The notes beneath the pieces are model-generated. The model did not search any database and was not told where the DNA came from. It saw only the letters and a list, made by a program, of their open reading frames with translations. From Anaerolinea thermophila (GTDB lineage: Bacteria; Chloroflexota; Anaerolineae; Anaerolineales; UBA4823), in contig DYGV01000002.1 in NCBI GenBank assembly GCA_020724505.1, positions 29,619 through 70,005 of the forward strand: a DNA stretch of 40,387 bases, in the 5' to 3' direction. Below, one piece after another: positions 2,682 through 33,399 of this stretch. Position numbers and translations under genes: made by a program. Position 1 is the stretch's first letter. Every line of letters starts with the position of its first letter.

Positions 2682-2712
2682 TTGACCTTCCAGTGACTGG
2701 AAGGTGTACACT
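2682..2712 (+). promoter_or_regulatory. MerR-family (CueR-box type) promoter/operator
   Basis: -35 TTGACC (2682-87), 19-bp spacer, -10 TACACT (2707-12). Perfect dyad ACCTTCCAGT-G-ACTGGAAGGT (2685-2705), which is ACCTTCC-N7-GGAAGGT. Confidence 0.92.
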
Positions 2713-2736
2713 GGTTTTGCCTTGCAAGGAGCGAGC

Positions 2737-3147
2737 ATGAAAATTCAAGAGTTGACAAAAAGCACAGGCATAAGCGCCAAGACAATTCGCTATTACGAAG
2801 GGATTGGTATCTTGCCTGCACCTGCCCGCACCGAAAATAACTATCGCCGCTATACCGAACAGGATGTAGAACGTTTGCGTCTCGTGGCAGGTGCACGGCG
2901 GCTGGATTTGTCTTTGGATGACATTCAGGAAATCATTGCTCTGCGTGATCGCCGCGAAGCGCCGTGCCGTGTGTTGCTGGAGCGGTTGGAACACAAAGCC
3001 GATGAAATTGCCGAACGTATCCTTGAATTGAAGCGGCTTGAGCATGAACTGCGCGAACTGTACGCGCTCGGTTCAACCTTCCCTGTGGATGATGTGGAAG
3101 GCAAGCATTGCGTCTGTCACCTTGTAAGCGAACATGCCAAAGAGTAG
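2737..3147 (+). CDS. merR: MerR family heavy-metal-responsive regulator
   Basis: Start re-called to ATG 2737 after AAGGAG. MKIQELTKSTGISAKTIRYYE...NYRRY HTH; Cys77 plus C-terminal C125-x-C127. Confidence 0.9.
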   Translation: MKIQELTKSTGISAKTIRYYEGIGILPAPARTENNYRRYTEQDVERLRLVAGARRLDLSLDDIQEIIALRDRREAPCRVLLERLEHKADEIAERILELKRLEHELRELYALGSTFPVDDVEGKHCVCHLVSEHAKE

Positions 3148-3156
3148 GAGCAATGT

Positions 3157-3387
3157 ATGTCAAATCTATTCAAGAATTTCAATCCGCTCAAAACGGGAAT
3201 CATTGGCTCGCGCGTCGCCGCCCTGTGCTGTTTCACCCCCATTCTGGTTATCCTGTTAAGTACACTGGGAGTGAGTTGGCTAACGGGTTATCTCGATTAT
3301 GTGCTTTTTCCAGTGATGTTTATCTTTATTGGTCTGACTGCTTATGGTCTTTATCGCCAATCAAAATCAAAAGCCACAAACGAATAA
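3157..3387 (+). CDS. merF: mercury transport protein MerF
   Basis: 76 aa, two TMs, AALCCFTPILVILL...LTGYLDYVLFP MerF signature. Confidence 0.88.
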   Translation: MSNLFKNFNPLKTGIIGSRVAALCCFTPILVILLSTLGVSWLTGYLDYVLFPVMFIFIGLTAYGLYRQSKSKATNE

Positions 3388-3407
3388 CTCTGTCTTCGGA
3401 GAAATAA

Positions 3408-4277
3408 ATGTGGATTCTTCTTGCCTTGAGCGCAGCAACGCTGACTTCCTTCAACCCCATTCTTTATAAGCGAATATTGAAAGATGCAGACTCGTTGATC
3501 GTTGTGTGGGGCGTTACCCTGCTGGCATTGCCGTTGTTGGGTTTGTTTGCGATTGCACTCACACCGCAATTTCCCAAAGTGGATCGGCTATTTGCGATTG
3601 GCGTGTTGGGGTCGGCAGGCATGAATGCTGTGGCGCATCTTGCTTCAACGCGCGCATTGAAACTGGCGGATGTTTCATTGGTCACGCCGTTGCTGATCTT
3701 TAGCCCAGTATTTACTGTGTTGATTTCTGCTTTCTTTCTCGGCGAGATTCCCTCTCTGCGCGGATTGGTCGGCGTGGGACTGGTTCTCCTTGGGGCATAT
3801 TGGCTCAATTATCGTTCAGGCACAAATTGGTTCACGCCGTTCAAATCGCTTGCCTTCACACCCGCTGTTGCACTTGTTCTGCTGGCTGGATTGCTCTGGG
3901 CAATTACACCGCTATTGGAGAAAACAGCCATCCTGCATACAAACCCAGAAAGCCCGCGCTTTGCGGCATTCGTAGTAGACGCTCTCTTAACCATCACATT
4001 AACTCCAGCGGTCATTGCGCGCGGCAAGTCAGCCATTATCAAACTTTCTCTCCATCGCCGTGAATTTTTTCTTGCAGGTCTGATCGCGGGCATTGCGCCC
4101 GTGTTGGGGTATACCGCGTTCAGCCTCGGCTTCGTTGGATACGTAACAACACTTTTCAAGCTCAGCGCGCTGATGACTGTGTTCTGGGGTTTTCTCTTTC
4201 TCAAAGAAGGCGGGATGACGCAACGATTGCCCGCTTCATTGGTGATGGTGACAGGCGTCATCCTGATCGCGTCGTAA
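3408..4277 (+). CDS. EamA/DMT family transporter
   Basis: 289 aa with about 10 TMs; ALKLADVSLVTPL...SAFFLGE and LFLKEG repeat halves. Confidence 0.88.
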   Translation: MWILLALSAATLTSFNPILYKRILKDADSLIVVWGVTLLALPLLGLFAIALTPQFPKVDRLFAIGVLGSAGMNAVAHLASTRALKLADVSLVTPLLIFSPVFTVLISAFFLGEIPSLRGLVGVGLVLLGAYWLNYRSGTNWFTPFKSLAFTPAVALVLLAGLLWAITPLLEKTAILHTNPESPRFAAFVVDALLTITLTPAVIARGKSAIIKLSLHRREFFLAGLIAGIAPVLGYTAFSLGFVGYVTTLFKLSALMTVFWGFLFLKEGGMTQRLPASLVMVTGVILIAS

Positions 4278-4302
4278 TTCTGTTTAATCGCAGGAGTTCA
4301 AA

Positions 4303-5736
4303 ATGGAAAATGAATTCGACCTTGTAATTCTAGGTTCAGGCTCCACCGCCTTTGCCGCGGCAATCCGCGCGGCGGAACTGGACAGGACCGCCGCCATGAC
4401 CGAAATGCGGACGCTGGGCGGAACGTGCGTCAATCGGGGCTGCCTTCCGAGCAAGAATCTCATCGAAGCGGCGCGCATTGTCTGGGAGGCGGCGCATCCG
4501 CGCTATAAGGGACTCAAGTCCGCCAAAATGGATTTCAACTTTGCGGAACTGATCTCCCAAAAGCAGGATGTCGTTCATGCCTATCGAGATAAAAAATATC
4601 AATCCATTTTGACGGACGATGACAACATCAAGGTCTTTGAAGGCAAGGCGGAATTGATTGACGCGCACACTGTCCGCATGGGAGAAAGCATCTTAAGCGG
4701 CGACCAGATTCTCGTCGCGACAGGGACGCGTCCTGTCATCCCCCAGATTGAAGGCTTGGACAATGTGCCTTATCTCACCTCCGACCTGCTCACTTCAGAC
4801 GAAGCGCAGGAGTTAAAGGAACTGCCTGAATCGCTGGTCATCGTCGGCGCGGGATATATCGCGCTCGAACTGGGGCAGATGTTCCACCGCTTCGGAACGC
4901 GCGTCACGATTTTGGAACGCAGTCAGGTCATCCTGCCGCGCTATGAACCCGAAGTATCGGATTCGTTGACGTTCATTCTGCGCAAGGAAGGATTGAAAAT
5001 TGTTACTGAAGCGCAGGTCACGCGCGTTTCTCATAACTCCCAAAATGAAATCGAAGTGACGGCAAACGTGGGCGGGAAGGCGCAAACATTCAAGGCGCAG
5101 AAACTTCTGATTGCCGCAGGTAGACAGCCGAACACCGATGGCATTGGCTTGGAGAAAGTCGGCGTGCAATTGGATGAACATGGTTTTGTGAAGGTGAACG
5201 ACGAACTGCAAACCAGCGCCCCAAACATCTGGGCGGCAGGCGATGTAATTGGGAATCAGACTGAAAGCCAGCCTGCCACACCTGTCGGCGCGCATGACGG
5301 CGTGATCGTTGCAAAGAATGCGCTTGCAGGCGCGCATCAAATGATTGACCATCGTGTGATCCCGCGTGTAATTTTCACTGACCCACAGGTGGCGGTTGTC
5401 GGTCAGACAGATGAGGAAGTTGTCGGTTCAGGTGTGCGTTGTTGGTGCGGAACAATTCCGCTGGAATATGTCCCACGTGGAGGCGCGACCCATCAAACCG
5501 ACGGCATTGCCAAAATCGTGATTGACCGCGACACACAGGAAGTGAAGGGCGTCTCGCTGGTCATGCCCAACGCAGGAGAAGTGATCCACGAGGCGGCGAT
5601 GGCGATGCGCTTTCGCGCCAGACTAGAGGACTTCATTGACATGATTCACGTCTATCCCACAATGGCGGAGGCATTGAAGATCGCGGCGATTTCGTACTTC
5701 AAAGACCCCGCCAAGTTATCGTGCTGCGCGGAATAG
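4303..5736 (+). CDS. merA: mercuric reductase MerA (no N-terminal NmerA domain)
   Basis: GSGSTA FAD loop, [13 protein letters not shown] redox disulfide, GAGYIALE, C-terminal KLSCCAE vicinal Cys pair; lies in a mer operon. Confidence 0.93.
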
Positions 5737-5812: not shown

Positions 5813-6388
5813 TTACGAAAATTTTCTTTTGAATTGCTGAATGAGTTTCGGTAAAAACAGATACCCCAATAACACGATATTGATTCCCAACTCGACCCAG
5901 AAGAATTGACTCGCGTAATGTGCCCTGTCCCAGTAACTGACAGGACTATTGAAGCGCGTATGCCAATCAAAAGGGAAGAAGAGCACGGGACCATCGTTGT
6001 AATGAGTGAAGATGTCAATCACGGAATGCACCATGCAGCCAAAGACAAAGGATAGCCACCAATGTCCACGTGTGTTGGGTTGGTTTCTATGGCGCCAGAG
6101 AAAAATGGCATACAACAGCAAGGCGGTTGGCGAATGCAGCAAATTATGGCTGGCGACCCACAATGGATTGTTGAAGTACAGATTGTCAAATGCGTTGTTC
6201 ATCATTCCAGATACTGGCTGGGTGGCAACATGGCGGTTGTAAAGAAAATACCCAATCGACAATAACCCAAGTGGAATATCAGGTGCGACAGAACCCCACA
6301 GAAAAGGGGATTTGGCTAGTTTGAACTTTGTTCCAATCCTTTTCTCAATGGCGGCATTGATAACAAGATGAGTGGGAAATGTGTTCAA
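5813..6388 (-). CDS. membrane-bound metal-dependent hydrolase-like protein
   Basis: His-rich motifs TH, GSVAPD, HNLLHS, HSVIDIFTH-x-x-DG with hydrophobic segments. The TTG start overlaps the upstream TGA. Confidence 0.75.
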   Translation of the reverse strand: MNTFPTHLVINAAIEKRIGTKFKLAKSPFLWGSVAPDIPLGLLSIGYFLYNRHVATQPVSGMMNNAFDNLYFNNPLWVASHNLLHSPTALLLYAIFLWRHRNQPNTRGHWWLSFVFGCMVHSVIDIFTHYNDGPVLFFPFDWHTRFNSPVSYWDRAHYASQFFWVELGINIVLLGYLFLPKLIQQFKRKFS

Positions 6389-6918
6389 AATGTTTTCAAC
6401 ACCTTCAGCAACGCATCCACAGACGGTCTGTCTGTCGGATCGTGACTCGGATGGACGAGACGCAGGATGCCATCCTTATCCACAATGAAGTCGCCGCCGA
6501 GTTGGGATGTATCGTCGCCGTGGGAGTCGTAGAATGTGCCGCGCTGAAACCAGCGTTTGATGTAAACCCAGACTACGCGGGGATGCCATGAACGCCAACG
6601 GGAGCGTTCGAGTCGGTAGGCTTTGTAGATTGTTCGGTCGTGGTCAACGAGGACAGTGAATGTATGACAGACTTCATCCAGCCATTGTTGGAGCGCGGGA
6701 AGCGTTCCAAAGGAAATGATGAAGACGCGTGTATTGAGTTCTGCAAATTCTTCCTGGCGCGCGCACAACTGTGCGGCATGTTCGCGGCAGGGAATTCAGC
6801 CGAGGTGACGGAGGAAAACTAACAGGGCGTTTCCGTTTTTGAGTACATCGCTAAGTGTGACTTGTTCGCCGTCGAGGGTTTGCATGGTGAAGTCGGGGGC
6901 TGGTGAATTGAGTTTCAT
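6385..6918 (-). CDS. peroxiredoxin-like (AhpC/TSA, SelL/SelU-like) selenoprotein, UxxC, Sec41
   Basis: From ATG 6918: MKLNSPAPDFTMQTLDGEQVTLSDVLKNGNALLVFLRHLG-TGA(6798-6796)-IPCREHAAQLCARQEE..., in frame with ORF 6385-6768 (QLGGDFIVDKDG...DRP). The TGA sits at the first Cys position of CxxC, with a hairpin downstream. Confidence 0.88.
6751..6795 (-). promoter_or_regulatory. putative bacterial SECIS element
   Basis: Upper stem CGCAC-AGUU-GUGCG, with the loop 25 nt after UGA and G at loop position 2. Lower pairing is UUCC(C)UG.CGCG with CGCG.CAGGAA. Confidence 0.65.
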
Positions 6919-7540
6919 GTGTCAGGTTCCAAGTCTCAGGTGTCAAGTTTTGTTTTGCCCATAGAAGTCGTTGAACAATAGTGACGAATACAAACGCGGC
7001 AAATATGGAAAACAATACCGTGATGTATGTGGGAAAGAGCAGGAAGATTCCATAAGCGATGATCGTTTCAAATCCGCCGATGAGACCTGCTGGCATGACG
7101 ATGGCGGTTTGTGTATCGGGCGTATGTAAGGCGCGTTTTTCAAGAATAGCGGCGAGATACATCCACGAGGCAGAGTTGATGTAGAAGGACGCGAGCATTA
7201 AGGCTAAGGCGAGATAACGCTCCATCGTCGGCGAACCAGCTACCAGTCCAATGGGAAGCGCGGCGTAGACGATGAAATCGGTCAGGATGTCCACGTATCC
7301 GCCGAAGTCGGATTGCCTGTCGTGCAGACGCGCGATCAAGCCGTCGAGCCCATCCAGGACGCGGTTGAGAATCCAAAATCCAAGTGCAACGAAATAGGAT
7401 TGGGTGAAAGCGAACCACGCGGCGAGCAGACCTGCAACAAGAGCGAGGATAGTAATAAGGATGGGGGGGACGCGGCTCAAACTCTGCGCAAGCGGCGCAC
7501 CAACTTGATCCTTGAATTTGCGAAGAGGTGTATCGAGCAT
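6851..7540 (-). CDS. CDP-alcohol phosphatidyltransferase family protein (YnjF-like)
   Basis: LDGLDGLIAR...FGGYVDILTD matches the D-G-x2-A-R-x8-G-x3-D-x3-D signature. Confidence 0.9.
   Translation of the reverse strand: MLDTPLRKFKDQVGAPLAQSLSRVPPILITILALVAGLLAAWFAFTQSYFVALGFWILNRVLDGLDGLIARLHDRQSDFGGYVDILTDFIVYAALPIGLVAGSPTMERYLALALMLASFYINSASWMYLAAILEKRALHTPDTQTAIVMPAGLIGGFETIIAYGIFLLFPTYITVLFSIFAAFVFVTIVQRLLWAKQNLTPETWNLTHETQFTSPRLHHANPRRRTSHT
6914..6948 (-). repeat. five degenerate tandem heptamers
   Basis: Minus strand: ACTTGAC ACCTGAG ACTTGGA ACCTGAC ACATGAA. Confidence 0.55.
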
Positions 7541-9250
7541 CTATTTTTTCCTGATTTGCCACGCGAGGCGGGCTTGAGATTTACGTCTGCGATTCAAGGC
7601 GGGAACGGAATATTTCAACTGATCATCAATCGCTTTCTTCAATAATTCCGGCATGGATTTCTCGCCAAAGAAATGTTTGCGATATTCGCCGCTGCCCATG
7701 AATCCCACACGGCGGCTGAGCAGATTGAAACGCAGTTTGTTGTCGGGCAGATGATTTTTCCCATTGAGCAAATCCTTGAAGGCGGATGACATCCACGGGA
7801 AACGCTCGAACTGTTTCTTGATCTCGGCGACCGTACGATCCACATCCGCTTCATCTTCGGGGTTGACCTGATCCATCAAGGCGTCGATCTTTTCCTGAAT
7901 CTCGAAGAAGAGTGGAAAGCCGCCGCCTGCCAGTTTATGCCCCCGCATGAGTTGGATGTACTCATCCCGATTATTGGCGCGATAGCGATTCGTGATCAGA
8001 CTCAAATATTCAAGATATGCACCGAGCAGCCAGAGCACTTCATATACATTCCAGAGTTTGAAATTGTGCCATGACTTGAATGAGCTTGCCACAATACGGT
8101 CATGCATGTTGATGTAATCCAGCGTGATCGGCTCGAGTGAAGAAAATGCCTTGGCTGAATAATCGCCCGTTTGTTTGGCTTTCAACAGCAAATCGGCGAT
8201 AAGAAAAATTTGCGCGTGAGTGACGTACAACCCTTTCGAGTAGAGCGGGTCAATGAACCCTGCGGCGTGAGCGAGCAAAGCGAATCTATCGCCGACAATG
8301 TGATGTGCGGAATATTGCAGGCGGTTAATTCTCCTCCAATCGCGGACGGGTTTGGCGTTTTTCAGTTGCGCTTCCATATCGGGGAATTGCTGGATGAATT
8401 CGCGGAATTCCTCCTCGGGAGTCAAATCGTCCCGTTGCGGGTACAGGCGCGGATCAAGTTGCAGACCCACACTGCACAAAGGATTTGTGGAAGCAGGATG
8501 ATTATTGAACGGAATGATCCACAGCCAGCCACCCTTGAAGATATGATGAAGCGTCCCTTGTGAAAGCGGGTATGGATGTCCGTAATCCTGATGAGGCATG
8601 GTCACTTCGTTGAAACCGGGCACATCGATCATGTGCGTAAAGATGGTGCGGGAGTGTGACATCAGGTCGCGGTGGCGCCAGTTGAATTTCTGCGCCAGAA
8701 TGGATTTCATCCCACCCGCGTCGATGATGTATTCGGCGCGATAAGGCTTATCCTTGCTGGTGATGATCTCCACACCATCAAGCTGGACGTTGATATCTTT
8801 TATGAAGGTGTTTTGTAAGATCGTTGCACCGTAAGAGATGGCAACCGAAGTCAGGAAGTAATCCGAGTCCTGCCGCGTGATATGAATCTCATGTCCGTAG
8901 GGCATTTTAGGAATCACGGCTTGCAGGGTTTTGCGCGGGTCAACTCTTTGACCTGGGGTGTGATGCACGAAACTGAAATGACGCTTCACTCCGTGTTGCG
9001 TACCGATATAGTTGTAAAAGTTTTCAGAGGAATAATAGGCAAGTTCGGGCACATCGTAAAATTCCGCCAGCGCGCGCATGGCTTCGGATGTTTCCAGAAT
9101 CATCGACTCGCCGATGGTGAAGCGGGGATGCTGTCCGCCCTCAAAGACAATCACAGACAAGCCCTGGCGAGCCAACACGCTCGCCAGGGTCGAACCGCCG
9201 ATGCCAGAGCCAATGATGGCGACATCATATTTCTTTTGTTCATTTGCCAT
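7541..9250 (-). CDS. flavin-dependent halogenase (Trp-halogenase superfamily)
   Basis: GSGIGG, IGES, candidate catalytic Lys in GVKRHF, WLWIIP (WxWxIP) and FIDPLYSKG (FxxPxxSxG). Confidence 0.85.
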
Positions 9251-9254
9251 ACAG

Positions 9255-9596
9255 TTATGCTCTCACTGGAGCTTTGAGCAACCCATCCACCTTGGCTTTG
9301 ATAGCGGGAGCGGGCGCGGCACCAACGATGGTATCCCTGACCAACCCATCCCTGATAAAGAGCAGGGTTGGAATCCCTTGTATGCCATATTTCATCGCCC
9401 ATTGCGGATTCTCATCCGTATTGACCTTGGCGATGGTCAGTTTGTCTCCGTACTCTGCGGCTAATTTTTCTAGGACAGGTGCGATCATTTTACAGGGGGT
9501 ACACCAGGGCGCCCAGAAATCCACAACCACAGGGGTAGTCGATTTAATGACCGTGGTTTCAAATTCAGCATCAGTTATATGTAAGGGTGTATTCAT
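9255..9596 (-). CDS. trxA: thioredoxin
   Basis: [18 protein letters not shown]...IQGIPTLL. Confidence 0.95.
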
Positions 9597-9614
9597 TTTG
9601 GTTCTCCTTGTTGT

Positions 9615-10121
9615 TTAGTGTTCAAATATTTTTTCGCCGGCGCGGACAGCCACCTTGATACGATTTTCGGCTGGCGTAATTGGACAGGACCATTGTTCGT
9701 TGTAGGCGCAGTATGGGTTGTATGCTAGATTGAAATCCACGAGGAATTTTCCATCGGGGAGTTTTTCAGGTTCAAGATAGCGCCCTGCGGGATAAGATTC
9801 TTTCCCTGCCAGCGTATCTACAAAGGGAAGAAAGTATCCGTGCCCATTTTTGTAGATCGTGAGTTCCGCCGACTGCCCATCCACTTGAAACTTGAATTTG
9901 CCGAAACGTTGATAAGTTTGAGGCTGTCCGCCTGTGGTCTGGATTGTGATACTTTCTGAGGTTGGCAAGATTTCCACGTTCACTTCGAGGCGCAATGCAT
10001 TATTTTCAGGGAAATAATCGAGTCCCTTGAAATGCTGTTTCTGGAACGGTGTCAATGGACTTTGATGGTGGCGCGCATAGAATTGGTCTTTTTCAGCGCG
10101 GAAGGTTTTGAGGGATTGCAT
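9615..10121 (-). CDS. DUF1684 domain protein
   Basis: FRAEKD...SPL...GLDYF...GRYL...DFNLAYNPYCAYNEQWSCP...ENRIKVAVRAGEK. Confidence 0.88.
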   Translation of the reverse strand: MQSLKTFRAEKDQFYARHHQSPLTPFQKQHFKGLDYFPENNALRLEVNVEILPTSESITIQTTGGQPQTYQRFGKFKFQVDGQSAELTIYKNGHGYFLPFVDTLAGKESYPAGRYLEPEKLPDGKFLVDFNLAYNPYCAYNEQWSCPITPAENRIKVAVRAGEKIFEH

Positions 10122-10150
10122 GTTTTGTCTCCTTATTCTTCAACCACAGA

Positions 10151-10177
10151 GAGGACAATCGAGGTCTTTTTCTTACC
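10151..10177 (-). promoter_or_regulatory. putative ECF promoter P2 (GGTAAG-N18-CTC)
   Basis: 30 nt upstream of the DUF1684 start, heading the trxA-halogenase operon. Confidence 0.6.
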
Positions 10178-10201
10178 TGCCAACTGAGACGCGTAATTGG
10201 A

Positions 10202-10435
10202 TCACGATTGCCCCTTCTTGATGCTGAGAACTGTGGAAGCGCTAGAAACTGTGGAAACAATATACGGTACACAAACCGTCAGGATGATTTTCAACACGCG
10301 GGTAGGATCCATTTGCCCATGCAGCAATGCGTCTCCATGATTGATAGCTGTCAGTATGGCGCCTACGATGAGCGCGGTGTAGCTTGCCCGCCGTACAATA
10401 TCCCTAGAAAAACATAGTGTAAGAAAATCTTTCAT
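10202..10435 (-). CDS. nrtS: NrtS-family small membrane protein
   Basis: ALIVGAILTAINHGDAL...KIILTVCVPYIVST family motif. Confidence 0.75.
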   Translation of the reverse strand: MKDFLTLCFSRDIVRRASYTALIVGAILTAINHGDALLHGQMDPTRVLKIILTVCVPYIVSTVSSASTVLSIKKGQS

Positions 10436-10439
10436 ATTC

Positions 10440-10700
10440 CTATATCAGACGGGTTTCGAAGAGTTTTTCAGATAACCTGGTATTGGTTGGCTCGACTAAA
10501 ATGGAGCCATCGCCAAAGACAATGGTTGGAACACTGCGATTGCCACGGTTTGTAGTTTTGACGAATTTTTCGCCTTCACGATCTTTGTCAATATCAATCC
10601 AGTTATAGGGAATCTGGTGTTCGTCCAGCAGGCGTTTTGTGCGTCTGCAATCCCCGCACCAATCGGTGCCATAGACAGTGATGCCAGGTTGGTGGTTCAT
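10440..10700 (-). CDS. mycoredoxin/NrdH-like glutaredoxin
   Basis: YGTDWCGDCRR...GNRSVPTIVFGDGSILVEP. Confidence 0.9.
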   Translation of the reverse strand: MNHQPGITVYGTDWCGDCRRTKRLLDEHQIPYNWIDIDKDREGEKFVKTTNRGNRSVPTIVFGDGSILVEPTNTRLSEKLFETRLI

Positions 10701-10711
10701 TGGTTCCTCTT

Positions 10712-11473
10712 TCAGTTCTGGCTCAGTTGAGCGATTTGTTCAGAAGTCATACCATCCACAACGGGGAGGTCGCCCTGCTCCTGCAGATGGAGTTTCCCGA
10801 ATGTATCGAGCATGTGACCGGACTTTTCGGCTTTGGTCTTTAGATAAAATTCGTTGTGCGGATTGGGCGGGATGATGACGGGAATGCGTCCGTTGACTTT
10901 CACGCCGTGCTGGGTCAGGTTTTCGATTTTGCGCGGGTTGTTGGTCATCAACTGAATCGATTTGACCTTCAAGGAAAACAGCATGTGCGCGGCAACACTG
11001 TATTCGCGCTCGTCATCGCGAAAGCCCAGGGCAAGGTTGGCATCCACGGTATCGTAGCCATGATCCTGCAATCCATAGGCGCGGATTTTATTGATCAAGC
11101 CAATACCGCGCCCCTCCTGACGCATGTAGAGCAGAATGCCCTTGTCCATTTTCCCAATTTCCTTGAGCGCGGTTTCCAACTGGTCGCGGCAGTCACAACG
11201 CAGGGAGCCTATCGCATCGCCGGTCAGGCATTCCGAATGGACGCGGACTGGCACGTTTTCCGCATTCGTCACATCGCCGCGTACGATGGCGGTATGTTCC
11301 TTACCATCCCGGTTGTTGTAGAAAGCAAAGATGTGAAAGTCTCCAAAGCGCGAGGGTAACTCGCCGATGGCGGCGATGCGTACACAGACCTTGTCCGGTC
11401 CGAAGCCTTCGCATTCGTGTTTCAGGTTTTCATCGAGCAGTTCCTTGATTTGCATGTGTGTGAGTGACATCAT
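10712..11473 (-). CDS. ribA: GTP cyclohydrolase II
   Basis: VRVHSECLTGDAIGSLRCDC, QEGRGIGL, LMTNNPRK, KSGH. Start re-called to ATG 11473 after AAGGAG. Confidence 0.95.
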   Translation of the reverse strand: MMSLTHMQIKELLDENLKHECEGFGPDKVCVRIAAIGELPSRFGDFHIFAFYNNRDGKEHTAIVRGDVTNAENVPVRVHSECLTGDAIGSLRCDCRDQLETALKEIGKMDKGILLYMRQEGRGIGLINKIRAYGLQDHGYDTVDANLALGFRDDEREYSVAAHMLFSLKVKSIQLMTNNPRKIENLTQHGVKVNGRIPVIIPPNPHNEFYLKTKAEKSGHMLDTFGKLHLQEQGDLPVVDGMTSEQIAQLSQN

Positions 11474-11520
11474 GTCTCCTTGTGAAATCAATAATTGAGT
11501 ATAGATTGGGTGGATATGAT

Positions 11521-12141
11521 CTATCCTGTTAATGCTGTTTGGGGATAGCCTACATAAACAGTGACATCTTCCATAAAATCACAACTTTCCTGCCAGGTCT
11601 CGAAGGGCAGGTCTTCGAAATCTCCGGCAAGTTGATGAAAGGGTTCGGTCATCATGATGTATTCATGGGACGGAATTGAGTTTTTCAATAACTGATGAAT
11701 TAGGATCACATCCTCACCTGCCATTTCATCGAATTGTCGAATCTTCCTGAACACAGCCTCGCCGAGATGCAGAATGGCTTTCAAGCGCAGGTCAAAGATG
11801 CGCTGGCAGGCGTCGCAGTCGCAGTCCGCTCTTTCAATGGACAAGGAATGAACGCGTTCGTAAAAGACCCTGAAAAATTCCCGTACCTGGCGAGCCACAT
11901 CCCGGGCGACCTCGATCTGGTCTCCTGCATTTACTTCTGCATATAGAAATGCCGCATCGCCCTCCAGCTTGTTCAAAGTCAATGGATACGCGGCGTGATC
12001 GATTACCGCCTCCAGCAATTCGAAGACGATCTCCTCGGCATGGATGGCGCTCAACTTTTGTGAGCGAATGAACTGTGTGTAACCGCTGATGTCCACCATA
12101 ACCAGCGCCACTTTTCTTGTGTCCATCATCCTTCCTTTCAA
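11521..12141 (-). CDS. DUF2652 domain protein (class III nucleotide-cyclase-like fold)
   Basis: MVDISGYTQF, KLEGDAAF, CDCDAC, LKAILHLGE, GEDVILIHQLLKN. Confidence 0.85.
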   Translation of the reverse strand: MKGRMMDTRKVALVMVDISGYTQFIRSQKLSAIHAEEIVFELLEAVIDHAAYPLTLNKLEGDAAFLYAEVNAGDQIEVARDVARQVREFFRVFYERVHSLSIERADCDCDACQRIFDLRLKAILHLGEAVFRKIRQFDEMAGEDVILIHQLLKNSIPSHEYIMMTEPFHQLAGDFEDLPFETWQESCDFMEDVTVYVGYPQTALTG

Positions 12142-12848
12142 CTAGCATAGAGCGGAATGCGTGCGCCGTTGATCATCCGCGCCTCGCCTGAACTTAGGAA
12201 CAGGAGAGCCGAAGCAATATCCTCCGGCGTTGTCCAACTTGAATTCTCATCGTCGGGTTTTTGATCGCGTACATGTTCGGTGTCGATCTTTTTTACAAGC
12301 AGAATGTTGGCAGTGATCCCGCTTCCCTTGACCTCTTCTGCAATCGTTCTGAGCAAAATCTCCTGTGCCGACTTGCCGATGGCGTATGGTGCCATATCCG
12401 CCACCGGGTCGGAGGCAAGTGGCGATGAAACGGCGAGAATACGCCCCCAATGGTTGGAGAGCATTAACGGGAGCACGTCCCTCGTCAAGTGATAAGTTGT
12501 CCATAAATGCTGTTGAAGCATGGACTCCACCTGTTCGCGGTCCGATTCGACCACAGACTTGCCTCCGCTCCATCCCCCCACCAAGTGAAGCAGGATATCA
12601 ATTCGCCCGAATTTATCCATCGCCTGCCGCACCAGGTCGGAGGTTCGTTCGGGTTGGCATAAATCGGCGACGCTGATCAGGACGCGTTCCCTGGGTAATT
12701 TCAATTCCTCCTCGAGCGACTGGACCCTTTCCAGGTTGGTCCCGACTAGTACGAGCCGGACGCCCCGATCTGCAAACTGCCTGGTGACAATCTGCCCCAG
12801 CCTGCCTGTGGCGCCGGTAATAACAGCGACGCGATTATTGATGCTCAT
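12138..12848 (-). CDS. SDR family oxidoreductase
   Basis: TGATGRLG Rossmann motif and YAIGK. Start re-called to ATG 12848 (MSINNRVAV) after GGAG. Confidence 0.9.
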   Translation of the reverse strand: MSINNRVAVITGATGRLGQIVTRQFADRGVRLVLVGTNLERVQSLEEELKLPRERVLISVADLCQPERTSDLVRQAMDKFGRIDILLHLVGGWSGGKSVVESDREQVESMLQQHLWTTYHLTRDVLPLMLSNHWGRILAVSSPLASDPVADMAPYAIGKSAQEILLRTIAEEVKGSGITANILLVKKIDTEHVRDQKPDDENSSWTTPEDIASALLFLSSGEARMINGARIPLYAS

Positions 12849-12905
12849 TATGAATCTCCAAAAGATTGTTGATTTCGGTTGACGCTGCCGAAAATCTATA
12901 CTGGT

Positions 12906-12932
12906 GATACCGACCTCGCCATTATTCTTACC
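12906..12932 (-). promoter_or_regulatory. putative ECF promoter P3 (GGTAAG-N18-ATC)
   Basis: Upstream of the SDR-DUF2652-ribA-grx unit. Confidence 0.65.
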
Positions 12933-13000
12933 CGCCCATGATTCTTGCAAAATAGCAATGTTGGATTCCAACAGGCGAACACACTGTAATTGAATCGGGA

Positions 13001-13027
13001 TGTAAGTCATTCACCTCAAGCTGCGTC
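13001..13027 (+). promoter_or_regulatory. putative ECF promoter P4 (TGTAAG-N18-GTC)
   Basis: 35 nt upstream of ORF 13062, heading the deiodinase-like unit. Confidence 0.6.
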
Positions 13028-13061
13028 AATGGGATAAAACCCGACTGGGAAGGAAAAGCCC

Positions 13062-13403
13062 ATGAACGAACACACTCAAAAACTGCAAGCCATCCTTGAA
13101 AAAGAATCCCTGACTGCCAAAGAGGTGCAAGATGGTGTCGTTACCTGCTTCTTTGCCATCAACCGCGATTTTGTGAAGCGCCGCATGGGTGACATCCCAG
13201 TTGAACAGGTGGATGGGGTACTGCAAGAATTGGTCACTCAGGTTCTTGATGAACATCACATTGATCCTGAAAAGCCCGAACTCTATCTATTACAACAGGC
13301 AGAGTTGGCGCTGGAGGAACAGACTGGATTCGAGACTGAACCGGACCTGCTCCAGATGCACAAAGGCATTGTCCAAACCTTGTTCTCGCGAGCAAAAAAT
13401 TGA
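13062..13403 (+). CDS. hypothetical protein (acidic, helical)
   Basis: 113 aa ORF with AGGA RBS; fills the gap between the promoter and the selenoprotein gene. Confidence 0.7.
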   Translation: MNEHTQKLQAILEKESLTAKEVQDGVVTCFFAINRDFVKRRMGDIPVEQVDGVLQELVTQVLDEHHIDPEKPELYLLQQAELALEEQTGFETEPDLLQMHKGIVQTLFSRAKN

Positions 13404-13445
13404 AGCGCGGTTTTCTTCATTCCCAGATTTTGATTGGAGACCCAC

Positions 13446-14147
13446 ATGGATGATCGGTTGACCCGCTACAACTACGATAGTTTCGTACCCGAGAAATTCG
13501 AGCCGTGGATGAACTTCGAAGCCAGCCCGAAGACAGGCACCGTTGGGTTGGATTTCCCGTTATGGGATTTGGATCAAACGCCCACAAGGCTCAGTGAGAT
13601 CTGGTCGCGGCACGATTACACCATTGTGGAGTTCGGCAGTTTCACCTGACCGTATTGCGGGATGGCGGCGCCATCCATGAATGCTATGGCGGATAAGTAC
13701 GGAGAATACAAAGTTGGGTCAATATTTCTTTATTCTCACGAAGCCCACCCTGGGGAAAATTATCCACACCTGACCTCAATGGAACAGAAATTCCGTCACG
13801 CGCGGGACCTGCGGGATGTCCTCGACGTGACGCGCCCGATCCTGGTGGATTCTCTCGACGGCGCGTGTCACCGCGCCTACGGCTCGATGCCCAATATGAC
13901 CTGGATCTTCGCCCGATCAGGTCTGATCGTTTACAAGTCGGACTGGACGGACGCGCACAGCGTGGAAAATGCGATCCAATATTTCAGCCAAATTCCAAGC
14001 CGACGAAAGGTAGGTGAACGACTGGCGCCCTTCCACGTGGAGCGGCTGGATTACCGCAATCAGGAACGCGAACAGTTTTACAAATGCCTCGAACGCAACG
14101 GCCCCAAAGCCGTGGCGGAGTTTCGCAAGGCGTTTCCTACAGGTTGA
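13446..14147 (+). CDS. iodothyronine-deiodinase-like selenoprotein, UxxC, Sec68
   Basis: ATG 13446 after GGAG; ...IVEFGSFT-TGA(13647-49)-PYCGMAAP.... ORFs 13434-13649 and 13662-14147 are in the same frame. Deiodinase motifs FGSxTU, YSHEAHP, D...AYG..P. Confidence 0.88.
13650..13689 (+). promoter_or_regulatory. putative bacterial SECIS element
   Basis: GGAUGGC-GGC-GCCAUCC hairpin (13660-13676); the loop starts with G, 17 nt after UGA; lower stem GUAUU/AAUGC. Confidence 0.7.
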
Positions 14148-14835
14148 TTCTTTTCTCACGATAACGGACGATGCGATAAAAACCTATGCTGACTGCGAAC
14201 ATCGCCGCAGAGATCACCAATGAAAGTGGATCAAGCCTGACGCTTTGAGATGCAAAATCGCCTTGAATGGACGCGCCTAACATGCCGAATGAAATCGTGC
14301 CAGGGATACTGCCCAGTACCGTCGCCAACATGAACCAACCCAGGTCAATCCGCAGGAAGCCTGAAAAGTAACTGACCAGATCGTAGGGCAGGAACAGGAA
14401 GCGCAAAATCATTGTCGTTTGGAAACTTTCACGCCGAAGACGGTCGGCGTAGATGCCAACTGTTTTATTTTGCTCGATGTTATGCAGAAAGCCGCTCCCG
14501 AAAAAACGCCCGATGAAATAAGCGATCATGGAAGAGAGATTGCTGGCGATCATGGCGTAGGCAATTCCCCGGACAGGACCGTACAGGTAGGTGGCGGTCA
14601 TCGTCACCAGTGTGGCGGGGAAAAGAAAAATGGGGCGAATCATATAAACCAGAACATACAGCGGAAACCCATACGGGCTGTCCGAAACAAAATGAATTAG
14701 CGCCTGCATGGTCTCCATTGGCGTCAAACCGTTGGCGGTTGTGTACCACCAGTAGCTCGCCAGCAGGATCGCCCAGGCAATCATGGCGATCACTTTGCTC
14801 TTGTAGCGCGGGGGCTTTGCGGTTTCTGTGTTCAT
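14137..14835 (-). CDS. TVP38/TMEM64 (VTT/DedA-like) membrane protein
   Basis: RPIFLFPATLVT...LYGPVRG...YFIGRFFG...LRFLFLPYDLVSY...ATVLGSIPG. Confidence 0.88.
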   Translation of the reverse strand: MNTETAKPPRYKSKVIAMIAWAILLASYWWYTTANGLTPMETMQALIHFVSDSPYGFPLYVLVYMIRPIFLFPATLVTMTATYLYGPVRGIAYAMIASNLSSMIAYFIGRFFGSGFLHNIEQNKTVGIYADRLRRESFQTTMILRFLFLPYDLVSYFSGFLRIDLGWFMLATVLGSIPGTISFGMLGASIQGDFASQSVRLDPLSLVISAAMFAVSIGFYRIVRYREKRINL

Positions 14836-15608: not shown

Positions 15609-16250
15609 ATGGATAAGCGAACCAACGAAGAATGGGTTGCAGATTTACGCGCCGGTGGGGATCGGCAGGCACAGGCATTGGAGGATTTACGCGCCATCAT
15701 ATTGCGAGGATTGCCGTATGCCATTGCAGGAAGACTGGACCCCAACAGCCCCGAGTCGGAAGCGCTGACCGAGGAAGTGGTGCAGGAAACCTTGATGCGT
15801 GTTTTGGAATACCTTGACTCTTTTGAAGGACGCAGTCAATTCACGACTTGGGCACATAAAATTGCTGTGCGCGCCGCACTGACCGAGTTACGCCGCGTGC
15901 GCTGGCGCGAAGTACCCCTGCCCGAAATGAATATGAATGAGGAAAGTGATACTTCCTATCGCGAAACGCCAGATGATCAGGCGAATCCTGAAGAGCAGGT
16001 GTCGCAGGCTGAAATGATGGCGCGGGTCAACCGAATCATCATGGAGGAACTCACCGATAAACAGCGCCAGGCACTGACGGCCATCATGGAAGGTTTCCCG
16101 CTGGAGGAAGCTGCACAACGAATGGGAACCAATCGCAACGCGCTCTACAAGATGCTGCATGATGCCCGTCTGCGGCTGAAGAAACGCTTGGAAAAAGAAG
16201 GACTGACCCCGCAGGAGATTTTGTCTGTATTTGAGCAAGCTCGCAAGTAA
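15609..16250 (+). CDS. ECF RNA polymerase sigma factor
   Basis: EEVVQETLMRV...FEGRSQFTTWAHKIAV (region 2) and LTDKQRQAL...LEEAAQRMGTNRNALYKMLHDARLRLK (region 4). TATAAT at 15597-602 lies 6 nt before the ATG, suggesting a leaderless mRNA. Confidence 0.93.
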   Translation: MDKRTNEEWVADLRAGGDRQAQALEDLRAIILRGLPYAIAGRLDPNSPESEALTEEVVQETLMRVLEYLDSFEGRSQFTTWAHKIAVRAALTELRRVRWREVPLPEMNMNEESDTSYRETPDDQANPEEQVSQAEMMARVNRIIMEELTDKQRQALTAIMEGFPLEEAAQRMGTNRNALYKMLHDARLRLKKRLEKEGLTPQEILSVFEQARK

Positions 16251-16297
16251 GAGATTGAATGGGCATTGCTATCCATGTGTGGAAGGAATTTAGTAGC

Positions 16298-16600
16298 ATG
16301 AAAATAAAACAGTTCATCCAGAGGATTTTGGGTTCCAAAAAACAAAAACCAGCATCTGGTGGAATGTCGGCGAACCCGTCCGAAAAGATGCAAAAGATGA
16401 TGTCGATGTTATCCAATACGCGGGAGGAAGAACTGACCTGTGACGAGGTCTTTGCCCTGCTCGATCAATTTACTGAACTCGCGGCGCAGGGAGAGGATGT
16501 CGCGCAACTGATGCCGCTGGTGCAACAGCACCTGGATATGTGTGAGGATTGCCGGGAGGAATACAAGGTGTTGCAGAGTATCTTGCATGGCACGGCGTAA
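16298..16600 (+). CDS. soluble zinc-binding anti-sigma factor (zf-HC2/RsrA-like)
   Basis: LTCDEV...HLDMCEDCREE matches C...HxxxCxxC; no TM segment; directly after the ECF sigma. Confidence 0.8.
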   Translation: MKIKQFIQRILGSKKQKPASGGMSANPSEKMQKMMSMLSNTREEELTCDEVFALLDQFTELAAQGEDVAQLMPLVQQHLDMCEDCREEYKVLQSILHGTA

Positions 16601-17359: not shown

Positions 17360-18562
17360 ATGACCGATCCCCGTTTGACTCCTGAGATCATCACGCTTTA
17401 CGGAACGGGCTGGTGCCCCGACTGCAAACGCTCCAAGCAATTCTTTGGTGAACAGCGCGTTCCTTATCATTACGTGGACATTGACAATGACCCCGAAGCG
17501 ACGGCTTTTGTCGAGGAAGTGAACAAAGGCTATCGCAGTATCCCAACCATTGTGTTTCCTGATGGAAGCGTGCTGGTCGAGCCATCGAACGCACAACTTG
17601 CAGAAAAACTGGGCATGCAGACTCGCGCCAAGCGCGCCTTTTATGATGCGATCATCATCGGCAGTGGACCCACGGGCCTAACCGCGGCGACCTACCTGGC
17701 ACGCGAGGGCGTGGAAACGCTCGTGATCGAAAAGGCTGGTCTGGGTGGTCAGGCGGGTATTACCCAGACGTTGGATAACTTCCCAGGTTTCGATGAAGGA
17801 ATCCCGGGTGCAGAATTTGCCGCCCGTTTAACCCGCCAGGCACAACGCTTTGGCGCGGAGATCCTGCAAGCACAGGATGTGGTATCCATCGAACAGGATG
17901 GACAATACCAATGTGTGCATACCGCTGATGGATCGGAGTATGGCGCAACCGCCGTATTGCTTGCCACAGGTGCACGCTATCGCCGTCTTGGAATCCTTGG
18001 CGAGGATGATCTGGTCGGCTCAAACGTCCATTTTTGCGCCACCTGTGATGGAGCCTTTTATAAAGGAAAGAAGGTGTTGGTGGTCGGCGGCGGCAACAGT
18101 GGATTCGAGGAAGGTTTGTTTCTGACCAAGTTCGCCAGCCAGGTGGATATCGTCGAATTTCTGCCGCAGGTGAAAGCCAGCAAGACCCTGAGAGACAAAG
18201 TAGCGGAGATGCAAAACATGTCCGTGACTATCAATCATGCGGTCAGGGAACTGCGCGCGAAAAATGGTAAATTGGACACAGTGTTTGTCGAAGACCGTGC
18301 CACAGGTGAACAAAAGGAATGGCACTACGATGGTGTATTTGTTTTTGTTGGTTTATCGCCTAACAGCGCTCTGGTAAAAGGCAAGGCGGAAGTCGATCAG
18401 TGGGGGGCAATCGTCACCGATGGCACCCTCATGACATCCTTGCCAGGGTTGTTTGCGGCAGGCGACGTGCGTGCAGGTTCCACCAAACAGGCGGTGTCCG
18501 CGGCGGGCGAGGGAGCGACTGTGGCTTTGATGATGCGCCAGTATTTGCAAAAGAATGGCTAA
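17360..18562 (+). CDS. trxB: glutaredoxin(mycoredoxin-like)-thioredoxin reductase fusion
   Basis: N-terminal WCPDC Grx domain, then GSGPTG, GGQ, CATCDG, GGGNSG, FAAGDV...KQAVSAAGEG. Confidence 0.9.
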   Translation: MTDPRLTPEIITLYGTGWCPDCKRSKQFFGEQRVPYHYVDIDNDPEATAFVEEVNKGYRSIPTIVFPDGSVLVEPSNAQLAEKLGMQTRAKRAFYDAIIIGSGPTGLTAATYLAREGVETLVIEKAGLGGQAGITQTLDNFPGFDEGIPGAEFAARLTRQAQRFGAEILQAQDVVSIEQDGQYQCVHTADGSEYGATAVLLATGARYRRLGILGEDDLVGSNVHFCATCDGAFYKGKKVLVVGGGNSGFEEGLFLTKFASQVDIVEFLPQVKASKTLRDKVAEMQNMSVTINHAVRELRAKNGKLDTVFVEDRATGEQKEWHYDGVFVFVGLSPNSALVKGKAEVDQWGAIVTDGTLMTSLPGLFAAGDVRAGSTKQAVSAAGEGATVALMMRQYLQKNG

Positions 18563-18679: not shown

Positions 18680-19282
18680 ATGAACATGACATCAACCAAA
18701 CCTCAATTCGGTTATTTCCTTCTGGCGGATATTTCGGGATTTTCCTCATACCTTACGAAGGTTGAATTGGAACATGCGGGGGGTATCCTGCAAAAATTGC
18801 TGGAGGGTATTGCCCGGAAGATTGAGCCTGTCTTTCGTGTGCAGGGTTTTGATATTGATTCCGTGTTTGCCTTTGTGCCCAAAGCAGGAATTCATCGTTT
18901 CGAAAACCTATACAGGCTTGTTGAAGACACTTATGTCGAGTTCAAGGGAAATCTCACTGAGATCAGCAGCCACATTACCTGCAACTGTGCTGCTTGTCGG
19001 GATGTGACTTCCCTTGATCTGAAATTCATGGTTCACTATGGCGAATACATTCTGTCGAGTGTCCAGAATAAGTCCGTGCTATATGGTCTGGACCCGACCT
19101 TTGTCCGTAATCGCGGTTGGAAGGACTCCGTGTCTGTTTCCGTCGGCTGGCGAGGCTATGTATTATTCACGGGACCTTGCCTCGCAAACCTGCATGTACA
19201 TGCTGACAAATTTCAAGGTAAAAAGTTTTTTCAGGATCAAATCAGCATGTTTGGATCGGAGTTGAAAAGTAATGACACGTAA
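18680..19282 (+). CDS. DUF2652 domain protein (second, divergent copy)
   Basis: LADISGFSSY, CNCAAC, LDLKFMVHYGE. Confidence 0.78.
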   Translation: MNMTSTKPQFGYFLLADISGFSSYLTKVELEHAGGILQKLLEGIARKIEPVFRVQGFDIDSVFAFVPKAGIHRFENLYRLVEDTYVEFKGNLTEISSHITCNCAACRDVTSLDLKFMVHYGEYILSSVQNKSVLYGLDPTFVRNRGWKDSVSVSVGWRGYVLFTGPCLANLHVHADKFQGKKFFQDQISMFGSELKSNDT

Positions 19283-22873: not shown

Positions 22874-22998
22874 CGATCCCATCCATTGTCCCTTCGAGAC
22901 ATGATCCAGGCTGCATAAAGGACGACCGCACCCACAACCACACAGGCAAGCGGAACGCCACACACCACTACTATCAAACGCAACACCATCGCGATCAT
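22870..22998 (-). CDS. small single-TM protein (42 aa), not in ORF track
   Basis: MIAMVLRLIVVVCGVPLACVVVGAVVLYAAWIMSRRDNGWDR; TGATG overlap with the VirD4-like gene and ATGA overlap with the next gene. Confidence 0.65.
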   Translation of the reverse strand: MIAMVLRLIVVVCGVPLACVVVGAVVLYAAWIMSRRDNGWDR

Positions 22999-27217: not shown

Positions 27218-27224
27218 GGATGGC

Positions 27225-27265
27225 ATGATACAAAAAGACACGGATGGGTGGTCCGTCCGTGTCGG
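27225..27265 (-). promoter_or_regulatory. module-specific promoter motif copy A (CCGACAC-N28-TATCAT-N7-ATG)
   Basis: Same spacing as the copies at 36264-36304 and 39162-39202. Confidence 0.65.
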
Positions 27266-27406
27266 TAAAGTGTATAATCCAAGGTGGTTAATGTTTGATG
27301 GAGAATGATCCTTGCCTAATGAAGGCAAATTCTTCCGTTCAAGGATAAGCGCAAAGAATCTTGTTAGTTACAATCTATAATTAGTGGGCCATAAAGGTCA
27401 TTCATC

Positions 27407-31301: not shown

Positions 31302-31414
31302 AGCGATCTTTTATCCGTGCCGCCAGACGTAAATTTCGCCTCTTTCTTTACGATAATTATGTTGAGATACAACAAAAAATAGCATTATAGTAATCTCAAT
31401 TTCGGAACTAACTA

Positions 31415-33396: not shown

Positions 33397-33399
33397 GGC

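Follow-up and report, generated by a model that had tools for sequence, protein, structure and literature searches.

Gene content of the locus

We analyzed a 40,387-nt stretch of a Chloroflexota genome labelled Anaerolinea thermophila (GenBank assembly GCA_020724505.1, contig DYGV01000002.1; hereafter the window, G000:C60:29619-70005 in our numbering of genomes and contigs), in which a predicted flavin-dependent halogenase gene lies in a run of six closely packed genes on the minus strand (10121-5813). The subject of this report is this run, and in particular the recurrent association of the halogenase with a CDP-alcohol phosphatidyltransferase and a selenoprotein. The assembly is 4.1 Mb in size and 89.7% complete, and the closest relatives of the window among public genomes are metagenome-assembled genomes labelled Anaerolineales or Chloroflexota. 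From its upstream end, the run consists of:

9615-10121, minus strand: DUF1684 protein, the first gene of the tight run (PF07920, 146.5 bits)
9255-9596, minus strand: thioredoxin TrxA (TIGR01068, 120.3 bits, cut-off 96.8), 4 nt upstream of the halogenase gene
7541-9250, minus strand: predicted flavin-dependent halogenase, 569 aa (PF04820, 46.7 bits, cut-off 21)
6851-7540, minus strand: CDP-alcohol phosphatidyltransferase, a 229-aa open reading frame (ORF) (PF01066, 42.3 bits, cut-off 22)
6385-6918, minus strand: UxxC selenoprotein of the AhpC/TSA_2 type, 177 aa (NF040769, 169.5 bits, cut-off 120)
5813-6388, minus strand: YdjM-family integral membrane metal-dependent hydrolase, 191 aa, with a Zn-phospholipase-C-like signature (PF04307, 39.4 bits, and PF00882, 34.5 bits, both above cut-off)

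Along the run the genes are separated by 18, 4 and 0 nt, followed by a 68-nt overlap and finally by an overlapping TTGA stop/start. An earlier annotation made from the letters alone (the sequence-only reading) had listed these six genes as a tightly packed run, and the list proved correct. Upstream on the same strand lie genes for an NrtS-like membrane protein, a glutaredoxin (Grx), RibA (GTP cyclohydrolase II), a DUF2652 protein and an SDR.

A predicted halogenase of the PltM/CtcP clade

When the halogenase was compared by phmmer with the sequences of the Protein Data Bank (PDB), the leading matches were the tetracycline 7-halogenase CtcP (7xgb; 359 bits, E = 3.7e-106, residues 6-476 or 6-488) and PltM (6bza; 303 bits, E = 2.5e-89, residues 5-413), while PltA, CmlS, CndH-type and other halogenases scored far below these two. 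Lys89 stands opposite Lys87 of PltM in the alignment; the available text of PMC6424973 describes Lys87 as catalytic and the K87A mutant as inactive. The sequence-only reading had said that a lysine lying away from the active site would count against it; since Lys89 aligns with PltM Lys87, the lysine falls at the active site. Moreover, across 30 aligned orthologues (55-92% identical) the hallmark positions were invariant (30/30): i) G14, S15, G16 and G19 of GxGxxG; ii) Lys89 itself; iii) W242, W244, I246 and P247 of WxWxIP (242-247); iv) F332, P335, S338 and G340 of FxxPxxSxG (332-340). The latter two motifs, which had been noticed in the earlier annotation, are thus both present and conserved throughout.

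The window enzyme reached no NCBIfam equivalog: CmlS came first (97 bits, cut-off 900), followed by the geranylgeranyl reductase family (80.9 bits, under the cut-off of 158.8). A search of the ESM Atlas with the halogenase returned generic halogenase clusters of several phyla only, with no context. With PltM and CtcP it has in common the FADH2-dependent clade, the catalytic Lys, both motifs and a helical C-terminal region, which in PltM shapes the substrate cleft according to the available part of PMC6424973. PltM is also described there as able to put Cl, Br or I on numerous free phenols and anilines. The window enzyme is longer at its C-terminus, with 569 aa compared with 522 for PltM and 556-558 for CtcP (PDB chains including tags). 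As it has every sequence hallmark, we assign it as a predicted true flavin-dependent halogenase of the PltM/CtcP clade, whose members act on free phenolic substrates.

A halogenase without a biosynthetic gene cluster

In secondary-metabolite clusters, flavin-dependent halogenases have a known role as tailoring enzymes. PltM (the phloroglucinol halogenase of Pseudomonas protegens; 6bza) and CtcP (the chlortetracycline 7-halogenase; 7xgb, 7v0b) belong to the polyketide pathways of pyoluteorin and chlortetracycline, respectively. Unlike them, the window halogenase is encoded on a contig without any gene for a polyketide synthase (PKS), nonribosomal peptide synthetase (NRPS) or carrier protein, has no dedicated flavin reductase beside it, and has a CDP-alcohol transferase as its constant neighbor. 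Pfam scans of the larger ORFs of the window detected none of these biosynthetic functions and no flavin reductase, which upholds what the sequence-only reading had stated about the window. In the genome as a whole, seven PP-binding and seven ketosynthase matches were found, none of them on contig C60, and the only Flavin_Reduct gene (PF01613) lies on contig C216. No type III PKS, which might have provided a resorcinol substrate, was found in the 89.7%-complete genome. The halogenase lies outside any PKS/NRPS or carrier-protein context.

Two further halogenase-family genes are found in this genome, on contigs C5 and C217. The latter (G000:C217:10279-11612; loci L002, L006 and L151 in our numbering of fetched loci) is situated just downstream of a PP-binding carrier-protein gene. 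This is the classical biosynthetic arrangement and provides a useful contrast to the window halogenase.

The CDP-alcohol transferase

In the transferase, D63, D66, G67, A70, R71, G80, D84 and D88 were invariant in 28/28 sequences, and these positions match what we take to be the Asp-rich catalytic motif pattern of CDP-alcohol phosphatidyltransferases. By its Pfam family, its Asp-rich motif and its build as a multi-pass membrane protein of ~200 aa, the transferase resembles CDP-alcohol phosphotransferases such as the archaetidylinositol-phosphate and phosphatidylinositol-phosphate (PIP) synthases, the IPCT/DIPP synthase (4mnd) and AF2299 (4o6m). It differs from the named enzymes in that i) it falls far under the NCBIfam equivalog cut-offs (61 versus 180 bits for archaetidylinositol-phosphate synthase and 38.5 versus 170 bits for PIP synthase); ii) it forms a subfamily of its own with extra invariant positions; and iii) its neighbors are DedA, reductase or halogenase genes. 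Four PF01066 paralogues are encoded in the genome. The conserved part of the protein covers ~200 aa, where the orthologues stop; in the window the usual stop has been lost (6851-6926), so that the ORF extends to 229 codons and overlaps the start of the selenoprotein gene by 68 nt. We regard it as a membrane enzyme of the CDP-alcohol phosphotransferase family and a likely dedicated partner of the halogenase.

The selenoprotein of the run

The selenoprotein carries a predicted selenocysteine (Sec), Sec41, in its U-x-x-C motif, encoded by TGA at 6798-6796 on the minus strand. This codon was kept in 16/16 orthologues of the genome loci described below and in 59/60 homologues over all fetched loci, the remaining one having TGT (Cys). 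Furthermore, selA (533 bits) and selB (349 bits) are present in the genome, both above their cut-offs. Two variants were observed: an orthologue with U-x-x-Y, in which Tyr replaces the resolving Cys (L027:8405-8926), and the homologue with Cys (TGT) for Sec (L100:1312-1836).

Just 3' of the Sec codon, a hairpin resembling a selenocysteine insertion sequence (SECIS) can be folded at 6745-6797 on the minus strand (minimum free energy -20.7 kcal/mol, z = -2.2), whose apical part (~6764-6775) has a 4-bp stem and a 4-nt G-containing loop. Among 48 unique homologous sequences this apical stem-loop was nearly invariant at the nucleotide level; its variants include one compensatory A-U to G-C change (L099) and G-U wobbles (L086 and L096). 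The RNAalifold consensus over the selenoprotein homologues did not recover the hairpin, and for this reason its identity as a SECIS is rated as suggestive only.

The AlphaFold2 (AF2) model of the selenoprotein (pLDDT 90.5) found its best PDB folds among Bcp and other peroxiredoxins (Prx), PGFS (PRXL2B; prostamide/PGF synthase) and ResA, with no deiodinase among the top 50 matches, while its N-terminus weakly matched the NCBIfam 'deiodinase family protein' (E = 1.2e-5). Fold and family matches together mark the product as a predicted SelL-related redox selenoprotein of the Prx/PRXL2 fold. UxxC selenoproteins of this kind are known from marine metagenome selenoproteomes, and the SelL-related family is catalogued as NF040769. 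The window protein resembles the bacterial Prx-like/SelL-related members in its thioredoxin/Prx fold, in having Sec first in UxxC, in the existence of a Cys form and in a possible bacterial-type hairpin after UGA. Unlike the catalogued ones, it occupies a constant position in a halogenase/transferase operon, and our literature search found no paper noting such a position.

Co-conservation of the halogenase with its neighbors in genomes

The halogenase led to 21 genome loci (67-93% identity), and several of their contigs end inside the cluster. These loci were compared with the window proteins by tblastn, counting matches over more than 50% of the query. The transferase was present in 18 of the 21 loci and the selenoprotein in 16, followed by TrxA (13), DUF1684 (7), YdjM (6), an ECF sigma factor gene (6) and, near the halogenase, the NrtS-like gene (6). 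Thus the co-conservation of the halogenase with the Prx-like (SelL-related) selenoprotein and the CDP-alcohol transferase, which the sequence-only reading had put forward for checking, was borne out at these loci.

In a sample of 401 evenly chosen Chloroflexota genomes (the phylum sample), the halogenase was found in nine genomes, the transferase in 21, a SelL-related homologue in 29 and a deiodinase-like gene in 19. All nine halogenase-positive genomes carried the transferase, and six of them a close (at least 70% identical) orthologue of the selenoprotein. Among 121 genomes of the same order (the order sample), 15 had the halogenase and 19 the transferase, and again every halogenase-positive genome (15/15) had the transferase: the two genes were no more than 600 nt apart in 11 of the 15, and on the same contig at up to ~10 kb in two (G423 and G435).

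None of eight other genomes of the same family, including one of the same genus (96% complete), had the halogenase or the transferase, yet the window halogenase is 93% identical to that of G193, which belongs to another family. On these grounds we regard the module as accessory and as having probably moved horizontally. Integrase or transposase genes flank some of the halogenase/transferase loci. In the same-genus and same-family genomes (G439 and G362), no syntenic counterpart marking the borders of an insertion was found.

A transferase-centered unit in metagenomes

A metagenome scan with the transferase alignment gave 80 loci (45-77% identity), of which a subset of 22 had at least 2 kb on both sides (well-flanked loci). 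The halogenase was present in 36/80 loci (15/22 of the well-flanked), the selenoprotein in 40/80 (12/22), YdjM in 21/80 (11/22), TrxA in 17/80 (7/22), DUF1684 in 8/80 (4/22), VTT/DedA in 7/80 (3/22) and a module-type pyridine-nucleotide disulfide oxidoreductase (PNDR) in 8/80 (2/22). Further MerA-like matches occurred in 5/80 loci (3/22), and an NrtS-like gene lay near the halogenase in 4/80.

Halogenase and transferase genes were found in six relative arrangements, so that their linkage survives rearrangement. In 24 loci the halogenase is upstream of the transferase on the same strand with a gap of no more than 300 nt, and in four more the same order has a wider gap, which contains SDR-like sequence in L068, L081 and L093 (in L081, two tandem SDR genes by Pfam). 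The halogenase is upstream on the opposite strand (divergent) in three loci, downstream on the same strand in one, and downstream on the opposite strand (convergent) in four, the latter with two gap classes. Moreover, in the 47 loci with both genes at full length, pairwise halogenase and transferase distances were correlated (r = 0.50, a value reached in 0/999 permutations), the halogenase being better conserved than the transferase (mean distance 0.26 versus 0.38).

Seven loci (L027, L053, L070-L072, L075 and L088) carry a divergent halogenase, ~67% identical to that of the window, in a similar context, while loci with the ~92% type (L007-L012, L067, L084 and L085) have it in the same position beside transferase and selenoprotein. 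Two halogenase types in one position suggest gene replacement or divergent specificity.

Relatives of the transferase without a nearby halogenase adjoin DedA/VTT genes, with or without PNDR, an FMO-like flavoprotein or SDRs (L054, L055, L057 and L058). The order halogenase-transferase-VTT-reductase was seen in L048, L049, L099 and L108, including the mixed clusters selenoprotein-VTT-PNDR-transferase-halogenase (L099) and VTT-PNDR-halogenase-YdjM (L108). On the contig of the window, a DedA/VTT gene followed by a PNDR gene is situated at G000:C60:22485-24615 (L143:776-2907), ~5 kb before the window begins. According to the available text of PMC10127716, DedA proteins of COG0398 are often fused to a pyridine-nucleotide disulfide oxidoreductase, the function of which is unassigned. 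The pair of VTT/DedA and reductase seen here beside transferase and halogenase resembles that system, with the difference that no CDP-alcohol transferase or halogenase partner is mentioned in the available part of that account (PMC10127716). At the center of the robust unit stands the transferase, a CDP-alcohol phosphotransferase subfamily accompanied by redox proteins of thiol/selenol type, a phospholipase C (PLC)-like membrane hydrolase, DedA and flavoenzymes; in many lineages the flavoenzyme partner is the PltM-type halogenase.

No support for a link of the deiodinase-like gene and ribA to the halogenase run

A second selenoprotein gene in the window lies outside the module:

13446-14147, plus strand: deiodinase-like selenoprotein gene, with TGA at 13647-13649 in a T-U-P-x-C context

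This gene is below both family cut-offs (PF00837, 20.1 versus 27 bits; NF038285, 45.7 versus 250 bits). The best Foldseek match of its AF2 model in the PDB was 4tr3, the core of mouse Dio3 (E = 2.9e-10, TM-score 0.72 by target), with Dio2 (9h48) at rank 10 and a small margin over ResA-type folds. An in-frame TGA was listed at 13 of the 21 matched places of the gene in the phylum sample; besides Sec forms, the family includes members in which Gly, Ala or Ser occupies the Sec column. Selenoproteins of the deiodinase-like kind have been on record in bacteria since the Sargasso Sea selenoproteome of 2005, where a general redox role was suggested in the available text (PMC1088965), and they are listed in a 2026 review whose available part mentions no halogenases (PMC13188914). 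The window gene is like them in its in-frame TGA, T-U-P-x-C and Dio3-like fold, although it lies below the family cut-offs. In the window and in L010 it is preceded by a conserved 113-aa ORF (13062-13403 in the window); this ORF is found in L007 and L067 as well, two loci without a listed deiodinase-like match.

The sequence-only reading had tied this gene to the halogenase as a halogen-handling system in which RibA supplies the flavin. The deiodinase-like gene is not co-conserved with the halogenase: it was found in two of the nine halogenase-positive genomes of the phylum sample (G000, and G193 in two pieces), 17 of the 19 phylum-sample genomes that have it are without halogenase, and it occurs in 2/21 genome loci and 2/80 metagenome loci (L086 at 80% and L074 at only 26% identity). 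Moreover, in G362, of the same family, the deiodinase-like gene, part of the sigma gene and a Grx-thioredoxin reductase (TrxR) gene stand on one contig without the halogenase run. The role given to RibA is likewise unsupported, as ribA was adjacent in 1/21 genome loci and had no match in the 80 metagenome loci. These distributions fit two separate units, the deiodinase-like unit and the halogenase run, which are neighbors in the window by chance.

It had also been claimed that ribA and the deiodinase-like gene are preceded by the same promoter motif. A common TTGATT...GGAGAC is indeed found before both, at 11474-11491 (minus) before ribA and at 13430-13441 (plus) before the deiodinase-like gene; lying 1-18 nt before the start codons, it is a Shine-Dalgarno region made up of a GGAG element and a hexamer, not a promoter. 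GGAGAC precedes other genes too (for example, at 10127-10132 before DUF1684), and the pair is not conserved: ribA of L016 has GGAGAC only, and neither L010 nor L022 has the pair upstream of its deiodinase-like gene. As the pattern was derived after both sites had been seen, its expectation in shuffled sequence is not a fair test. A repeat search over 9500-14200 detected no element common to the two upstream regions, Rfam at gathering thresholds had no match in the window, so that there is no FMN riboswitch before ribA, and scans for sigma-70-type promoters and terminators showed no excess over shuffles.

Other features of the window

The remaining genes that bear on the redox setting of the run are:

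10202-10435, minus strand: NrtS-like membrane protein, 77 aa (NF038050, 53 bits, cut-off 25)
10440-10700, minus strand: mycoredoxin-like glutaredoxin (Grx) (TIGR02200, 88.5 bits, cut-off 89.5)
14137-14835, minus strand: DedA/VTT-domain membrane protein (PF09335, 71 bits), ~5 kb from the halogenase, whereas other lineages have such a gene immediately beside the transferase or halogenase
15609-16250, plus strand: ECF sigma factor, a sigma gene that is next to the halogenase cluster in some loci
16259-16600, plus strand: 113-aa soluble protein with an H-x3-C-x2-C zinc anti-sigma-like motif, directly after the ECF sigma factor
17360-18562, plus strand: mycoredoxin-like glutaredoxin fused to thioredoxin reductase, kept near the halogenase cluster in L015, L022, L024 and L053
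11521-12141, minus strand, and 18680-19282, plus strand: DUF2652 paralogues of the redox region
2704-5736, plus strand: MerR-family regulator, EamA transporter and MerA core (TIGR02053, 516 bits; C-terminal Cys-Cys pair)

The NrtS-like protein and Grx are looser companions whose place in the module is uncertain, and that the former, from a family named for nitrate/nitrite transport, could serve as a halide carrier is only an idea. The ECF sigma factor and the H-x3-C-x2-C protein could be a thiol-oxidation-sensing pair. The DUF2652 gene at 11521-12141 is kept upstream of the halogenase run in L007, L011, L016, L053, L067 and L078. The MerR/EamA/MerA group is convergent with the halogenase operon, and a like arrangement occurs in L027. 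Farther along, 22998-35693 holds conjugation-type genes (TraG/TrwB-like coupling protein and AAA_10/VirB4-like ATPase) together with Tad-pilus-like genes (CpaF, CpaE and CpaB types), and a low-GC stretch at 28-32 kb carries a Hachiman-type pair, HamA and a DEAD-box helicase; thus 22998-35693 shows signs of a mobile or island-like region.

Possible function of the module

The explanation we favor, to which we assign a probability somewhat short of even, is that the module is a conserved accessory unit of Anaerolineae/Caldilineae-type Chloroflexota in which the halogenase acts on a membrane-associated or phospho-linked phenolic substrate. The chemistry we infer would run as follows: i) an unlinked flavin reductase, the single PF01613 gene elsewhere in the genome, would supply FADH2; ii) the halogenase would form hypohalous acid, hand it to Lys89 and halogenate an electron-rich (phenol/resorcinol-like) free substrate; iii) this substrate would most likely be the head group of a phospholipid, or else an alcohol to be joined to phosphate or lipid by the transferase; iv) the selenoprotein, recycled by TrxA, would quench leaked hypohalous acid and chloramines or edit the product reductively. 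A lipid-type substrate is proposed because three of the partners are of membrane phospholipid type, namely a head-group transferase, a DedA-type lipid translocator and a PLC-like hydrolase. The halo-lipid idea of the sequence-only reading is thus compatible with the conserved partners, while the link it drew to the deiodinase-like gene and ribA is unsupported. A more specific version, which we consider unlikely, has the module producing either a membrane phospholipid that carries halogen or a halophenol anchored to lipid: a phenolic or polyol head group would be put in place by the transferase and halogenated by the halogenase, DedA would flip the product, YdjM would release or recycle it, and the selenoprotein would provide reductive editing or protection.

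Several observations speak against the favored explanation. The transferase reaches no NCBIfam equivalog cut-off. As a family it is also more widespread than the halogenase (21 versus 9 of the 401 genomes), and in some loci (for example, L137 and L115) the fetched DNA holds transferase, selenoprotein and YdjM but no halogenase, so the halogenase may be an add-on to a transferase-centered module and not its core. The two genes were on different contigs in two of the nine phylum-sample genomes (G255 and G391) and in two of the 15 order-sample genomes (G438 and G450), and the selenoprotein was absent from all three halogenase-positive genomes of one family (f21). Since the ~92% and ~67% halogenase types have a common context, part of the pattern is gene replacement. 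Moreover, the sampled genomes are related and not independent, so that the co-occurrence counts overstate the support.

Alternatively, the enzyme may be a soluble small-phenol halogenase in a thiol-stress island, acting, like PltM, on a free phenolic that is a signal, serves in defense or comes from the environment; an oxidative/hypohalous-stress regulon protecting the cell would then comprise TrxA, Grx, the selenoprotein, the disulfide reductase and the ECF pair, while transferase, DedA and YdjM would be co-transferred membrane-maintenance genes that take no part in the chemistry of the halogenase. The broad range of free substrates described for PltM (PMC6424973, in its available text) agrees with this, as does the richness of the window in thiol-redox genes (TrxA, Grx, the Grx-TrxR fusion, the deiodinase-like gene and MerA), and an ECF sigma gene, followed in the window by the small H-x3-C-x2-C anti-sigma (15609-16600), adjoins the halogenase cluster in 6/21 genome and 9/80 metagenome loci. 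However, what is most constant is the adjacency to the transferase, which exceeds that to any redox gene and persists through six rearrangements, and a crude ECF-type promoter pattern occurred at 7 sites against 6.1 expected, none of them at operon starts. We regard this alternative as rather unlikely. The operon could also hold a halogenation/reductive-dehalogenation pair, which shifts the idea of the sequence-only reading from the deiodinase-like gene to the SelL-related selenoprotein of the run; the latter would be a TrxA-recycled dehalogenase that takes a halogen off an over-halogenated product by a selenenyl-halide or thiol mechanism. The animal deiodinases are one analogy for this, and another is Bmp8, reportedly a thiol-dependent dehalogenase beside the brominase Bmp2. 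The selenoprotein does adjoin the transferase or the halogenase in 16/21 genome and 40/80 metagenome loci, its Sec is kept in 59/60 homologues, TrxA is directly upstream of the halogenase, and the weak N-terminal match (E = 1.2e-5) is to the 'deiodinase family protein'. But the fold search, which ranked Bcp/peroxiredoxins, PGFS and ResA first and no deiodinase in the top 50, points elsewhere, the three f21 genomes have halogenase without selenoprotein, close selenoprotein orthologues occur where no halogenase was found (G006 and G055), and a U-x-x-C thioredoxin fold would suit a general disulfide, peroxide or chloramine reductant equally well, which together make such a pair quite improbable.

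It appears very improbable that the enzyme, with its halogenase scaffold, acts in vivo on a lipid or quinone as monooxygenase or reductase. The geranylgeranyl reductase family does come next after CmlS (80.9 bits, under 158.8), and the neighbors are of lipid type; yet the catalytic Lys and WxWxIP, markers that set halogenases apart from flavin monooxygenases, are invariant in 30/30 orthologues, and the nearest solved relatives by far are proven halogenases.

Implications

Each of the enzymes belongs to a known family, and the new part is their conserved combination. Our literature search found no paper pairing 'flavin-dependent halogenase' or 'halogenase' with 'CDP-alcohol (phosphatidyltransferase)', and no relevant paper linking halogenase, Anaerolineae and selenoprotein. 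If the lipid-type reading is true, the window enzyme would be, to our knowledge, the first known flavin-dependent halogenase devoted to the chemistry of membrane lipids, and also the first to have a selenoprotein as a standing partner. The adjacency of the deiodinase-like gene provides no evidence of a bacterial iodine cycle here. On the other hand, a Sec enzyme beside a generator of hypohalous acid offers a new biological role for such enzymes, the association with transferase and halogenase provides a first clue to the function of the DedA (COG0398)-disulfide reductase pair, and the halogenase is a candidate biocatalyst. A well-conserved halogenase of the versatile PltM/CtcP clade accompanies phospholipid-type enzymes and a selenoprotein in many uncultured Chloroflexota, in subsurface and other environmental metagenomes, which suggests an as yet unstudied class of halogenated products, either of the cell envelope or of small-molecule type.

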